A stretch of 62,539 nucleotides of DNA from an uncultured Candidatus Saccharibacteria bacterium (GCA_964479725.1 CAYZNF010000007.1:1-62539); one strand, 5' to 3'. Shown: positions 10,320-52,137, numbered from the stretch's first letter. The notes: generated by a model not told the origin, from the sequence alone. Translations and numbers: made by a program.

Positions 10320-10952
10320 ATGACAAAAATTAACACAAAAACCATTGGGACGTTGCTCATTGTTCTTTTGTTCGTTGGAGGGGGCGTTTTGGCGTGGAAA
10401 ATTTTTGATGATCGGGAGGAACAGTCGTTGCAAAATCAAGAAAGCCAATCTTCTCGTGATGAACTTTTAGGGCAAGGGCTAAATATGGCACAATTGAAAA
10501 TAGGTAAGTATAAGGTGGATTCTATACAAAAAGATGGCAAGGCATGGGAAGAATTAAAATTTGAAGGTGTTGAAGAGGTTTCCTCCGCAAATTTGTACGA
10601 AGATTTCTCTAAACTGTATCCTCGATCTACAGACAAAAACAGTGAGATGTATATTAGAAATTTGCTGGTTCGAGGCGATACCATAGAAGTATCTTTTGGC
10701 GGAGATGAGACTAAGCTTACAGAGCGCATGGGTACTACTGGCGCTCTCCTTTATGCGGGCGAGCTTGTCTTTACTTTAACAGAGGATCCAAAAATAAACT
10801 TGGTGGATTTTAAATTGCAAAAAGAGGGCAGTCATTTTGGTCCCGGAACTCGTACTCGGGAAAACTTTATGGACCTATGGCCGACTGGGTTACTTGAAAA
10901 ACATGCCGATCAAGGCAATCAAGAAGCCAAAAGAATTTTAAATTATAGATAG
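10320..10952 (+). CDS. Membrane-anchored protein, GerMN-like C-terminal domain
   Basis: N-terminal TM; IEVSFGG...GTTGALLYAGELVFTLTEDPKINLVDF resembles GerMN. Confidence 0.55.
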   Translation: MTKINTKTIGTLLIVLLFVGGGVLAWKIFDDREEQSLQNQESQSSRDELLGQGLNMAQLKIGKYKVDSIQKDGKAWEELKFEGVEEVSSANLYEDFSKLYPRSTDKNSEMYIRNLLVRGDTIEVSFGGDETKLTERMGTTGALLYAGELVFTLTEDPKINLVDFKLQKEGSHFGPGTRTRENFMDLWPTGLLEKHADQGNQEAKRILNYR

Positions 10953-10958
10953 CTGTGA

Positions 10959-11018
10959 AAAGCCGTACTTTGCACAATTCTGTGCAAAGTACGGCTTTAC
11001 ACACACGGCTTTACACAC
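10959..11018. repeat. 18-bp perfect inverted repeat plus 14-bp tandem duplication
   Basis: AAAGCCGTACTTTGCACA-attc-TGTGCAAAGTACGGCTTT (10959-10998); ACGGCTTTACACAC x2 (10991-11018). Confidence 0.85.
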
Positions 11019-11047: not shown

Positions 11048-11479
11048 GTGGTGTGGTATAAGGAAAGTGTGCAGGAAAAAAGTATTGAAAATTTAAAAGA
11101 AAATATAGCAAAGGTTCTTGAAGAGGAAGAAGAGGTTTTGTTCGCGTATATTTTTGGTTCTTTTGTGCGGGGAGATGCTATAGGAAGCAGTGATATTGAT
11201 ATTGCGGTCTTTCTATCACCCGAATCCCATGCAACTTTTTTTGAAAAACGTTTGGAACTTATGGAGAAGTTGACTCGGGGGTTAAGAAGAGATGCAGACG
11301 TAATTATATTGAATACCTCCTCTCCGTTTTTGCGGTATGCAGTTCTTAAAGAAGGTATTTTGACGGTAAATCAAGATTCGAAGGCGCGTCTTGAATTTGA
11401 GTTGAGAACTATGAATGAATATTTTGATTACAAGCCCATCTTGAAACTGTATAGAGAGCGGTTGGGCGTTGACGCATGA
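11048..11479 (+). CDS. mntA: MntA-type minimal nucleotidyltransferase (type VII TA antitoxin)
   Basis: YIFGSFVRGD...SDIDIAV; 4-nt overlap with the HEPN gene. Confidence 0.9.
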   Translation: MVWYKESVQEKSIENLKENIAKVLEEEEEVLFAYIFGSFVRGDAIGSSDIDIAVFLSPESHATFFEKRLELMEKLTRGLRRDADVIILNTSSPFLRYAVLKEGILTVNQDSKARLEFELRTMNEYFDYKPILKLYRERLGVDA

Positions 11480-30445: not shown

Positions 30446-31627
30446 ATGAAATTTTTTGAAATTACAAAACAGAGCAAAAAATCAAAAGCACGGACGGGTA
30501 TTTTGAGGACAAGCCATGGCAAAGTGCTGACCCCTTCTTTTGTGCCTGTAGCTACAAAGGGCACATTGAAGTCTTTGCCGCCAAAAGATATTAAAGAAAT
30601 TGGCGTGCAGATTGCTTTCGTAAACACGTTCCATTTGACCATTTACCCGGGAGTAGATGTTTTAAAAAAGTTTGGAGGGGTGCATAAGTACGCAAAATTG
30701 GATATTCCTTTAATGAGTGACTCTGCAGGATTTCAAGTGTTTTCTTTGGGTCAGGAAAAACCTGGTAAAAAGATAAAGACGCGCGAGGGGGATGAAGCTT
30801 TGCTTTTGGGCATATCGGAAGATGGGGTAAAATTCCGCTCGCCCCGCGATGGCAAAGAAATTCTGTTCAGCCCCGAGTTTTCAATAAAAAACCAGGAAAA
30901 AATAGGAGCAGATATTATGATGGCCTTTGACGAGTGCATTTACGGCACAGCTAGTCATGAATACACGAAATCAGCCACGGAAAGAACGCACCGCTGGCTT
31001 TTGCGATGCATAAAAGAGAAGAGCAAGAAGAAACAATCAGCAACCCGCCTCGACGCGAAGTCTTCGGCGAGGCAGGTCAACAATAAGCAATTTCTGTATG
31101 GGATTGTGCAAGGAGGGAGATTCAAGGATTTGCGGGAAGAGTCGGCAAAATTCGTTTCCGCACAAAATGTGGATGGAGTGGCGATTGGCGGGGTGTCTGT
31201 AGGCGAAACAAAAAAAGAAATGCGAGAGCAGGTAAAATGGACTATGCCTTATTTGCCGCAAGAAAAACCAAGACATCTCCTTGGAGTGGGAAGGGCGGAA
31301 GATATCTTAGATTTAATAAAAGAGGGGATTGATACGTTCGATTGCGTTGAACCGACGCGCTTGGCTCGCAATGGCACTGTTTTTCAGAAGAGGGGAAAAA
31401 GCTTTGTACGCTTGGATATCGGCAAATCAGCATTCCTTAACAATAAGAATCCCATACAAAAGGATTGCCGTTGTTATACCTGCCAAAATTTTTCCTTGTC
31501 GTTTGTCCACCATCTTTTTAAAGAAAGGGAGCTTTTGGGATGTTATCTTGCCACTTATCACAATCTGCATTTTTTCAGCCAGTTTTTCATCTCTCTTCGA
31601 AAAGACATCGAAAGGGGAGTGTTGTAA
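30446..31627 (+). CDS. tgt: tRNA-guanine transglycosylase
   Basis: TPSFVPVATKG, NTFHL, SDSAGFQVFSL, MAFDEC, YGIVQGG, PRHLLGVG, FDCVEPTR, DCRCYTC. Confidence 0.96.
   Translation: MKFFEITKQSKKSKARTGILRTSHGKVLTPSFVPVATKGTLKSLPPKDIKEIGVQIAFVNTFHLTIYPGVDVLKKFGGVHKYAKLDIPLMSDSAGFQVFSLGQEKPGKKIKTREGDEALLLGISEDGVKFRSPRDGKEILFSPEFSIKNQEKIGADIMMAFDECIYGTASHEYTKSATERTHRWLLRCIKEKSKKKQSATRLDAKSSARQVNNKQFLYGIVQGGRFKDLREESAKFVSAQNVDGVAIGGVSVGETKKEMREQVKWTMPYLPQEKPRHLLGVGRAEDILDLIKEGIDTFDCVEPTRLARNGTVFQKRGKSFVRLDIGKSAFLNNKNPIQKDCRCYTCQNFSLSFVHHLFKERELLGCYLATYHNLHFFSQFFISLRKDIERGVL
31043..31077. repeat. GC-rich hairpin inserted in frame in tgt
   Basis: ACCCGCCTCGACGCGAAGTCTTCGGCGAGGCAGGT encodes TRLDAKSSARQV before QFLYGIVQGG. 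Confidence 0.75.
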
Positions 31628-31631
31628 TTTC

Positions 31632-31670
31632 AGCTATGCTAAATTTACACGATCGTGGATTTTTTGTATA
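31632..31670. repeat. CACGATCGTG-core imperfect palindrome (copy 1), overlapping the promoter of the PaaX-like gene
   Basis: AGCTATGCTAAATTTACACGATCGTGGATTTTTTGTATA. Confidence 0.75.
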
Positions 31671-31677
31671 ATGAAGT

Positions 31678-32223
31678 ATGGATGAATATGCGAGGAAAAA
31701 ATTATTAGCACTGTTATTTGCTGGTATGGCGCTAGGATTTTCTTATACTCCCCAGCGTCGTCAAAAAATTTATAGCTCCACAAAGAGATATTTAAAGTAT
31801 CTTGACGAGCGTAAATTAAAAAACGAGATTCGAAAAATGTATCGTACCAAACTTATAAGATATAAAGAGAATTCCGACAAATCTATTACGCTTATATTAA
31901 CGGATAAGGGTAAAATGAAAGCGTTGACGTATCGCTTTGAGGAGATGACTATTTATCCTCCCAAAAAATGGGATGGCAAGTGGAGGATTGTCATCTTTGA
32001 CATTCCAGAAAAATTAAGGCAGGGGAGAGACGCTCTTCGCACTAAACTTATTCAAATTGGTTTCCTGGAATTCCAAAAAAGTGTTTTTGTTTTTCCGTAC
32101 CCATGCGAAAATGAACTAGACTTTATTATCGAATTTTTTAATCTCCGTCCCTATGTAAGAGTGGGTATATTGGAAAACATTGATAATGCAGCCGATCTTA
32201 AACATAAGTTCGATCTTCCTTAG
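31678..32223 (+). CDS. PaaX-family wHTH plus Cas2-like ferredoxin-fold protein
   Basis: LILTDKGK wing; KWDGKWRIVIFDIPE...RDALR..L...GF...QKSVFV.PY; no CRISPR array nearby. Confidence 0.88.
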   Translation: MDEYARKKLLALLFAGMALGFSYTPQRRQKIYSSTKRYLKYLDERKLKNEIRKMYRTKLIRYKENSDKSITLILTDKGKMKALTYRFEEMTIYPPKKWDGKWRIVIFDIPEKLRQGRDALRTKLIQIGFLEFQKSVFVFPYPCENELDFIIEFFNLRPYVRVGILENIDNAADLKHKFDLP

Positions 32224-32240
32224 AAGATATCTGATTATAA

Positions 32241-32292
32241 AATTTAGCTATACATAAAAGCCACGATCGTGGCTTTTATGTATAGCTAAATT
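32241..32292. repeat. Perfect 52-bp palindrome with CACGATCGTG core (copy 2)
   Basis: AATTTAGCTATACATAAAAGCCACGA|TCGTGGCTTTTATGTATAGCTAAATT. Confidence 0.92.
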
Positions 32293-51111: not shown

Positions 51112-51612
51112 ATGAAAATTCAAAAACAGAAAAATATAGCGGGAGTTTTATTGTTCGTGGTGCTAGGGGGAGTAGTTCTTGGAGGCATTGTATTTTTGCT
51201 GTTTGGCAGTTTTGCAAACCAAAATAATTCTCCAAGCGGCAATTCTCAAAATCCTGACGGAGTAATATCCAACAACGGCTTGCATTGGCACGCGCGTTTG
51301 GCAATTAAAATAAAGGGTGAGAATCGGGATATTCCGGCAAATATGGGTTTGGGAGCGGTGCATAATCCCATACACACCCATGACAGTACCGGCGAAATAC
51401 ACTATGAATTTGGCGGCACCGTACGAGAGCAGGACATAAAGCTAAAGAAATTTTTTGATGCGTGGGGAAAGCAGTTTTCGAGTACATGCGTCCTTGATCG
51501 TTGCAATGGGCCCGAGGGGCAGGTTAAAATGCTCGTGAATGGCGTTCCAAACAACGAATTCGAAAACTACATTCCCAAAAACGGGGACAATATAGAGATT
51601 GTGTTTGAATAA
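51112..51612 (+). CDS. Membrane-anchored His-rich hypothetical protein
   Basis: TM; LHWHARL, IPANMG, PIHTHDSTGEIHYE, C-x4-C. Confidence 0.75.
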   Translation: MKIQKQKNIAGVLLFVVLGGVVLGGIVFLLFGSFANQNNSPSGNSQNPDGVISNNGLHWHARLAIKIKGENRDIPANMGLGAVHNPIHTHDSTGEIHYEFGGTVREQDIKLKKFFDAWGKQFSSTCVLDRCNGPEGQVKMLVNGVPNNEFENYIPKNGDNIEIVFE

Positions 51613-51633
51613 CCATAGTTAATTTTATATTCT

Positions 51634-51672
51634 GGCTATGCAGAAATTGGACGATCGTGAGTTTTTTGTATA
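51634..51672. repeat. CACGATCGTG-family repeat (copy 4), solo, one core mismatch
   Basis: GGCTATGCAGAAATTGGACGATCGTGAGTTTTTTGTATA. Confidence 0.7.
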
Positions 51673-51708: not shown

Positions 51709-52137
51709 ATGAAAGCGATACTTTTCGATTTGTTTGGAGTGGTGGTGATTCCTGAAAGGGGATTGGGTACATCAAAAGATTTAAAGATTGATGGACGGAT
51801 GAGTGAAAAAATTCAAGAGTTAAAAGCAGCAGGTGTGCAATGCTATGCCGCTACTAATTTGGAAAAATCTGTTGTTGATTATCTTGCAGAAGAAAAAGGA
51901 TTGAAAAAACTTTTCGACGGGATTTTTTCTTCTTCGTCGGTGGGATATTCAAAAAGCGATCCCAAATTTTTTGAGACTGTTTTGGCGCTAATTGGCAATC
52001 CGCTCCCAGAAGAAGTGCTGTTTTGGGATGATTCTATTGAGAATGTGGAGATAGCAAGAAGCCTGGGCATTAAGGCGGAACTTTATACAAGTTTCGATGA
52101 TTTTCAAAAGAAAATGAAAGAACTCGCAAGTTCTTAG
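51709..52137 (+). CDS. HAD-superfamily hydrolase (cap-less)
   Basis: ILFDLFGV, ATN, SKSDPKFF, FWDDSIENV. Confidence 0.85.
   Translation: MKAILFDLFGVVVIPERGLGTSKDLKIDGRMSEKIQELKAAGVQCYAATNLEKSVVDYLAEEKGLKKLFDGIFSSSSVGYSKSDPKFFETVLALIGNPLPEEVLFWDDSIENVEIARSLGIKAELYTSFDDFQKKMKELASS

Follow-up and report, generated by a model that had tools for sequence, protein, structure and literature searches.

The locus analysed here raises the question of why a gene for a small, putatively DNA-binding protein should lie between two palindromes of one family, and what its protein does with them. The gene and four palindrome copies (A to D, Table 1) were found in a 62.5-kb stretch of DNA, referred to as the window, for which the original prediction had offered two readings: a mobile system laid out like RAYT genes and their REP palindromes and driven by a Cas2-fold nuclease, or an autoregulated operator network.

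Table 1. The bracketed gene and the palindrome copies in the window
Feature	Position	Strand	Description	Evidence
PaaX_M-protein gene	31678..32223	+	181 aa	ORF call; Pfam, NCBIfam, AlphaFold, Foldseek
Copy A	31632..31672	+	imperfect palindrome merged with the gene's promoter; dyad 31652/31653	inverted-repeat, promoter and repeat-family searches
Copy B	32241..32292	none	perfect 52-bp palindrome; dyad 32266/32267	inverted-repeat search, RNA folding
Copy C	40864..40908	+	degenerate solo; exact CACGATCGTG, TTTACA hexamer, poor -10 (CTAACC)	
Copy D	51628..51672	+	degenerate solo; reads GACGATCGTG, one change from CACGATCGTG	

A PaaX-type protein without an effector domain

The predicted combination of a winged helix-turn-helix with a Cas2-like fold is borne out by profile, model and structure searches. 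PaaX_M (PF20803), which Pfam names “PaaX central Cas2-like domain”, is the sole Pfam match of the protein (residues 96-166, E 1.2e-22, 80 bits against a cut-off of 24). The AlphaFold model, built on 24 homologues, has a mean pLDDT of 79, with 88-95 over residues 101-181 and just 45-56 over residues 11-40. It predicts an N-terminal winged helix of three helices and a beta-hairpin wing (residues 3-74, including the low-confidence residues 11-40), and after the wing the C-terminal half is modelled as a beta-alpha-beta-beta-alpha-beta domain. In a Foldseek comparison with the PDB, E. coli PaaX (8a39) and Rv0674 (3kfw) come out on top, with many Cas2 chains after them, and a profile comparison relates the N-terminal part, weakly, to QsrR and YodB, two winged-helix regulators of the HxlR type.

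Membership in either PaaX proper or Cas2 fails on the absence of an effector domain, on scores below cut-off and on the lack of a paa or cas context. The PaaX equivalog model (TIGR02277) yields a partial match of 33 bits against an NCBIfam cut-off of 264.55, and the Cas2 model (TIGR01573) 22 bits against 24.5, with residues 102-138 alone aligned; the PADLOC Cas2 models give partial alignments with an E-value of 4e-5 at best. No PaaX_C or other C-terminal effector domain was matched by Pfam, the protein ending at residue 181, nor any HUH/Y1_Tnp, transposase or recombinase domain, and a PDB sequence search with the Cas2-like domain returned no match. The gene is flanked by tgt (TGT) and an F420-ligase-like gene, with cytidylyltransferase-like and YchF genes also among its neighbours, and not by the cas1-CRISPR array context of Cas2. 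There are no paa catabolic genes near it and, as had been noted originally, no CRISPR-like array in the window.

Likeness to Cas2 and VapD thus consists of the predicted ferredoxin-like Cas2 fold, of FDIPE and QKSVF motifs that align with the first 40 residues of the Cas2 models, and of D108, the aspartate that ends beta-1, which is invariant in the alignment of the 24 homologues laid on the AlphaFold model and occupies what we take to be the position of the Cas2 metal-binding residue. The fused winged helix sets the protein apart from Cas2, as do the score and the missing array, and the database name “CRISPR-associated endonuclease Cas2” that some homologues carry is probably an over-call.

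The closer comparison is PaaX, the repressor of phenylacetate catabolism in E. coli and Pseudomonas (PDB 8a39, 3L09), with which the protein shares an N-terminal winged helix and a central Cas2-like dimerisation domain. E. coli PaaX consists of a winged helix, a dimerisation domain and an effector domain, binds the 39-bp site TGATTC-N27-GAATCA, and represses its own Px promoter, with RNA polymerase blocked (PMC9493321). A long palindrome over its own promoter is also what the present gene possesses, as a putative operator of about 42 bp. PaaX differs in its length of about 305 aa, including a C-terminal effector (phenylacetyl-CoA) domain, and in its paa context. The gene described here differs further in the conserved centre of its palindrome, which is no known feature of the E. 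coli PaaX operator, in the second copy of the site after the stop codon, and in having several paralogues per small genome, each with private palindrome arms. The protein probably works like PaaX, yet it is not PaaX itself. HrcA-CIRCE palindromic operators offer another comparison: there, too, a conserved inverted repeat might serve as DNA operator and RNA hairpin alike, but HrcA belongs to an unrelated protein family and CIRCE lies upstream of target operons, not on both sides of the regulator gene.

Palindromes at both ends of the gene, and the promoter

In the window, the imperfect palindrome predicted over the promoter (copy A; arms 31635-31655 and 31650-31670) is 76% complementary, and the perfect palindrome predicted after the stop (copy B) has 26-nt arms that are 100% complementary without a spacer, beginning 18 nt past the stop codon. 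As an RNA hairpin copy B folds at -35.4 kcal/mol (z -10.9). It contains neither a -35 nor a -10 hexamer. The sequence in its interior, AAAAGCCACGATCGTGGCTTTT, is shaped like a bidirectional intrinsic terminator and is also found 3' of the homologue in locus L020. A repeat finder independently placed 31626-31670, 32240-32284, 40864-40908 and 51628-51672 in one family, the last three being 76, 62 and 76% identical to copy A, respectively, and CACGATCGTG occurs 3 times in the window against 0.02 expected, a count reached in 0/100 shuffles. The two solo copies that had been predicted are thus present, although copy D departs from CACGATCGTG and both are weak palindromes, whose hairpins, folded as RNA, reach about -10 kcal/mol (z about -2). 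The 39-nt consensus originally written for the four copies is one base out of register and finds no match at up to 3 mismatches. Copy C sits in a 460-bp ORF-free gap, directly 5' of a structured, GC-rich stretch (40915-41178), and copy D lies 42 nt past the stop of ORF 51112..51612 and 54 nt before the gene for a HAD-type hydrolase (51709..52137). Rfam has no match on the window or on the gap after copy C, and the window holds no tRNA or tmRNA genes.

The bracketing is confirmed, and it is far broader than one gene. For the 181-aa protein, a 90% database yields at least 847 relatives at E<=1e-5, assigned to Patescibacteria wherever they are named, and clustering at 50% identity divides the family into 4,736 clusters. 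All homologues had their flanks inspected in 79 Patescibacteria loci from species-representative genomes (80 homologues), and nearly all homologues have a palindrome 5' of the gene and a second one directly past the stop. The matching upstream and downstream segments score above the 99th percentile of the null, in which flanks were paired across different loci, for 60/80 homologues (median 21.5, null mean 9.6), and where the elements are asymmetric, the two copies stand in direct register. Conversely, 87 of the 104 strong core-centred palindromes in the 1.14 Mb scanned adjoin a family gene. A second subfamily (at least 309 members, one of them on a 621-kb contig, about 30% identical to the window protein) shows the same bracket. 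The check that had been proposed, namely to collect PaaX-like genes across CPR, hence finds that each has its own flanking pair, and cognate solo copies exist as well. Literature searches retrieved no description of a regulator gene bracketed by its own palindromes.

The palindromes have a conserved centre and variable outer arms. CGATCG is the centre of 38/61 upstream and 50/71 downstream copies, and the remaining centres are CTATCG, CGATAG, CTATAG, CGGTCG, CGGCCG and AAGCTT. Self-complementarity is 60-100% up to position 21 from the dyad and falls to background beyond it, giving a unit of about 42 bp. The consensus of the CGATCG class is C.AAAA...TACGATCGTA...TTTT.G, with outer arms that vary between loci. 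Within a genome, up to five paralogues were found in the fetched loci, 31-75% identical to each other and each with its private arms, whereas orthologues in different genomes, up to 91% identical, retain their arms. The centre follows the protein clade, from CGATCG to CTATCG/CTATAG and then to AAGCTT/CGGCCG, the last two being the centres of the second subfamily. A mutual-information comparison of protein columns with half-site bases was not informative; the columns that ranked highest were simply those with the most variation.

The neighbourhood of the gene is not a constant one. Across the 79 loci the neighbour genes are unrelated housekeeping genes (304 neighbours in 237 clusters). Members of the Staskawiczbacteria orthologue group keep one position, with an M50-like protease gene on one side and rpsL-rpsG on the other.

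The upstream copy forms part of a promoter. Copy A overlies a sigma-70-like promoter with 11/12 hexamer matches, consisting of a -35 TTTACA (31644-31649), a spacer of N17 and a -10 TATAAT (31667-31672), and the ATG follows 5 nt after the -10, so that the mRNA is probably leaderless. Among the homologue loci, 37 have a promoter-like site with at least 9/12 hexamer matches, and in 23 of these the -35 hexamer is centred 12-17 bp 3' of the dyad, so that it coincides with the right outer arm. In 13 loci the distance from the end of the -10 to the ATG is exactly 6 nt, a spacing that points to leaderless mRNAs. The register is a different one for copy A and in the second subfamily, where the dyad precedes the ATG by 25-28 nt and the right outer arm forms the -10. 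In either register, a protein bound to the palindrome would cover the polymerase site. A good -10, correctly spaced, accompanies 48% of the upstream copies, 20% of the downstream copies and 5% of control positions; an antisense, leftward -10 in the left arm is not enriched (9-11% against 5%).

Proposed autorepression and its alternatives

The reading that we favour, with a confidence somewhat above even, is that of a minimal PaaX-type autorepressor with an operator embedded in its promoter and a second, promoter-less site that serves as a 3' boundary or terminator. The gene product would be a minimal repressor, with a DNA-reading winged helix and a Cas2-like dimer domain but without an effector domain, and its dimer is predicted to bind the palindrome of about 42 bp. 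The two winged helices would read the outer arms, which differ between paralogues, and the conserved CGATCG centre would lie under the conserved Cas2-like dimer core. Bound to the upstream copy, which overlaps its own, mostly leaderless, promoter, the protein would shut off its own synthesis. The downstream copy may set a 3' boundary, through hairpin termination, through a protein roadblock or both, and possibly pairs with the upstream site. Solo copies would be further binding sites, a minority of them at promoters. The private arms of the paralogues, the centres that track the clades and the lack of a wobble bias fit such a dimer, with winged helices on the arms and the Cas2-like core on the centre. 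In the upstream copies, mismatches of the G.T and A.C kinds are equally frequent (46:46), which argues for a constraint on double-stranded DNA. The distance from dyad to dyad (592-756 bp) has no helical phasing (p 0.5) and thus lends no support to a strict loop.

The operator half of the original alternative is accordingly better supported for the upstream copy, by the phasing to the hexamers and by the size it shares with the PaaX operator, and the “network” half is weaker: a -10 at the family's usual distance accompanies only 5/34 solos, about the chance level. The scarcity of promoters at solos, their presence in convergent spacers and inside genes, and their near-identity with sharp edges all count against autorepression, and simple autorepression leaves a site on both sides of the gene unexplained.

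The solo copies have to be considered in this light. About a dozen true cognate solos are present in the fetched loci (a raw count of 26 against 1 with arm-shuffled queries, about half of the raw count being mis-assigned flanking copies). The window has 2 solos, and 17 were counted in the 1.14 Mb surrounding family genes. Metagenome contigs scanned with ACGATCGTGRRTTTTTTG yielded 120 loci, many of them chance matches that fall in genes of unrelated organisms and extend little or not at all as palindromes; about 20 CPR-like contigs carry extended palindromes, and a family gene adjoins in 3 of these. Solos therefore probably outnumber flanking copies genome-wide; roughly estimated, a genome would hold about 20 solos and about 8 flanking copies. 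Solos occupy spacers of all three kinds (tandem, divergent and convergent), often directly 3' of gene ends, and some are located in genes: cysS, a giant gene and, in two lineages, the linker of rsmA. Within a genome, solo and flanking copies are identical at 38-43/44 positions, asymmetric positions included, and the edges of the solos are sharp, with identity at background beyond about +/-25 nt and limits of 45-60 bp. In sharpness and near-identity they resemble copied repeats more than a typical regulon. Two cognate solos in different genomes (L003 at 14737, L020 at 15863) lie 82-85 nt 5' of homologous genes, which encode a small protein with a C-terminal DeoR-like helix-turn-helix.

These properties bear on a REP/RAYT-like system without a HUH enzyme, in which the palindromes would be low-copy extragenic repeats recognised by the protein encoded between them, perhaps as extruded hairpins or a cruciform. 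The Cas2-like domain would nick, copy, homogenise or maintain the palindromes, promoter binding would be a secondary regulatory use, and the gene would be domesticated and vertically inherited, as RAYTs are. We consider this unlikely. The REP-like layout that had been predicted is genuine: as in RAYT/REP (REPIN) systems, the gene is nested between cognate palindromes, one palindrome family goes with each gene type and so with each paralogue, the gene is vertically inherited and single-copy per type, and extra palindromes are scattered in intergenic DNA. The direct register of the flanking pair, the sharp-bounded and near-identical solos, their probable excess over flanking copies, their positions in convergent and divergent spacers and inside genes, the lack of promoter features at most of them and the invariant D108 all speak for it. 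So, to a degree, do the differences between upstream and downstream copies of a locus, which are symmetric in 43 cases against about 17 expected from independence, weak evidence for a hairpin or cruciform constraint, but the complementary share among double differences is only 41% against 33% by chance.

Against it stand the absence of a transposase or recombinase domain, and of the HUH/Y1 domain of RAYTs in particular, and, on the counts given above, an apparently low density of solos, in place of tens to hundreds of copies. The fixed promoter phasing of the upstream copy is no REP property, and the direct register of the flanking copies likewise differs from RAYT/REP systems. Furthermore, no evidence of mobility or nuclease action emerged, leaving the mobility and the Cas2-fold nuclease of the original prediction without positive support. 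Empty sites, whose search in close relatives it had suggested, were looked for in four groundwater samples of the source population, where contigs are fragmentary, and no excised or empty form was found; the population is invariant across the 4 samples, without any form lacking the gene or a solo. There are no near-identical gene copies within one genome, synteny is kept within an orthologue group, and a search of IMG/VR viral contigs found no family members. Aligning contigs to the 60-nt element in order to count copies recovered the locus itself alone.

CGATCG-type palindromes lie in the rsmA/ksgA coding sequence, at the inter-domain linker, at about 2274 in L007 and about 3892 in L099, two lineages with proteins that are 50% identical. 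In the L099 group (L099, L080, L113, L127, L188) 52 nt are identical in all five contigs, the RsmA proteins being 77-80% identical. Compared with a homologue that lacks it, the palindrome is not an insertion and occupies an existing linker, which again counts against the REP-like interpretation. A separate palindromic insertion, 42 bp long, in frame and centred on a GCGAAGC mini-hairpin (CGCCCGCCAAAGTTTTTGCGAAGCAAAAATTTAGGCGGGCAAT), is present in the rsmA genes of L188 and L113 and missing from those of the close relatives L099, L080 and L127; it is a different element, and its presence or absence amounts to a clean insertion polymorphism.

A device that acts at the level of RNA appears decidedly unlikely. 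The hairpins in the transcript would serve as terminators or 3'-UTR stabilisers, and the Cas2/VapD-like domain would bind or cut a hairpin with a CGAUCG loop, resulting in post-transcriptional autoregulation. RNase activity has been reported for Cas2 and VapD proteins. The stability of the copy B hairpin, the AAAA-stem-TTTT family consensus with its bidirectional-terminator shape, the frequent position of solos just past gene ends, and a slight, marginal excess of G.U over A.C on the sense strand of downstream copies (61:40, p 0.046) agree with such a device; the last is also compatible with an added terminator role of the downstream copy. The upstream copy, however, lies 5' of the inferred transcription start and thus outside the gene's own mRNA, and it is free of wobble bias. 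Hairpin energy and T-tracts are alike in upstream and downstream copies, and the conserved loop and stem together with the 42-bp symmetric extent are a better fit to a DNA-binding dimer.

Very improbable is a recombination cassette, in which the palindromes would be sites of a host site-specific recombinase, the gene the cassette, and solos empty sites or deletion scars. Their format, inverted arms on either side of 6 central bp, resembles that of tyrosine recombinase core sites, the flanking copies are direct repeats, and the neighbourhood is as variable as described. In addition, a clpB and htrA-like pair lies directly upstream of the family gene in some contigs (L003, L010, L111) and upstream of gene-less solo palindromes in others (L166, with three tandem copies, and L189). 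Recombinase sites, however, conserve their arms and vary their centre, the reverse of what is found here. No recombinase gene is linked to a family gene, orthologues hold their position within a class, and the excised form is absent from the population. Finally, that the palindromes are ordinary terminators that coincide with the gene is scarcely credible: the window does hold other long terminator-like palindromes (e.g., 10954-11003 and 41491-41523), but their sequences are unrelated to copies A-D, and the tie of CGATCG-type palindromes to the gene family over 79 loci and two subfamilies contradicts it.

Patescibacteria (CPR) are uncultivated and have tiny genomes with few recognisable regulators. 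For a minimal autorepressor of the kind favoured here, the predicted 42-bp target of each family member can be read directly from its flanks, and these targets, with a promoter model that includes leaderless starts, make regulation in Patescibacteria testable in vitro on synthetic DNA. The family is large, is present in several copies per genome and is often mislabelled as Cas2 or PaaX in databases. Should it be true that the Cas2-like domain acts on the palindromes, this would be a new kind of repeat-maintaining system.

Other elements in the window and its community

A genuine RAYT/REP-like unit exists in the same window, 14 kb from the PaaX_M gene (46307-47364). Its ORF 46402..47124 (240 aa) matches Pfam Y1_Tnp, the IS200-like HUH transposase, above cut-off (E 2e-6), and the product has HYH and Y..NP motifs. 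It is bracketed by a palindrome of its own, AGTAAGGTTTAACCTTACT, in two tandem copies upstream (46328-46373), with a variant at the stop (47120-47138), another at 47343-47361 and none elsewhere in the window.

The surroundings of copy C hold further structured DNA. The GC-rich stretch past it, 40915-41178, is free of ORFs, folds with an MFE of -104 kcal/mol (z -3.5) and has a terminator-like hairpin at its end (41144-41164); possibly it represents an unknown small RNA. Directly 5' of copy C, the gene 40222-40788 has weak scores (E about 1e-5) to DUF6036 / AbiEii-like nucleotidyltransferases, a family that includes the toxins of type IV toxin-antitoxin systems. An ORF-poor stretch at 42087-42470 consists of a tandem duplication of about 219-230 bp and holds two identical 43-nt segments with palindromic ends (GCCCGCC...GGCGGGC). 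Searches of the fetched loci with nhmmer found no relatives of the GC-rich stretch or of this 42.1-42.5-kb repeat. The palindrome at 10954-11003 (TGTGAAAAGCCGTACTTTGCACA/TGTGCAAAGTACGGCTTTACACA; 23-nt arms, 96%) lies beside a short tandem repeat, between ORF 10320..10952 and a gene for a Pol-beta-type nucleotidyltransferase (11048..11479).

In the runs X1-X4, contig depth rises 10-60 fold over 31898-32111, which encodes the Cas2-like domain, and over 41250-41336, in a glutaredoxin gene, an effect of cross-matching by related genes from other members of the community; for the former this indicates that the PaaX_M family is abundant in the groundwater community. One X3 contig contains a C-type element with 2 differences in a different context.
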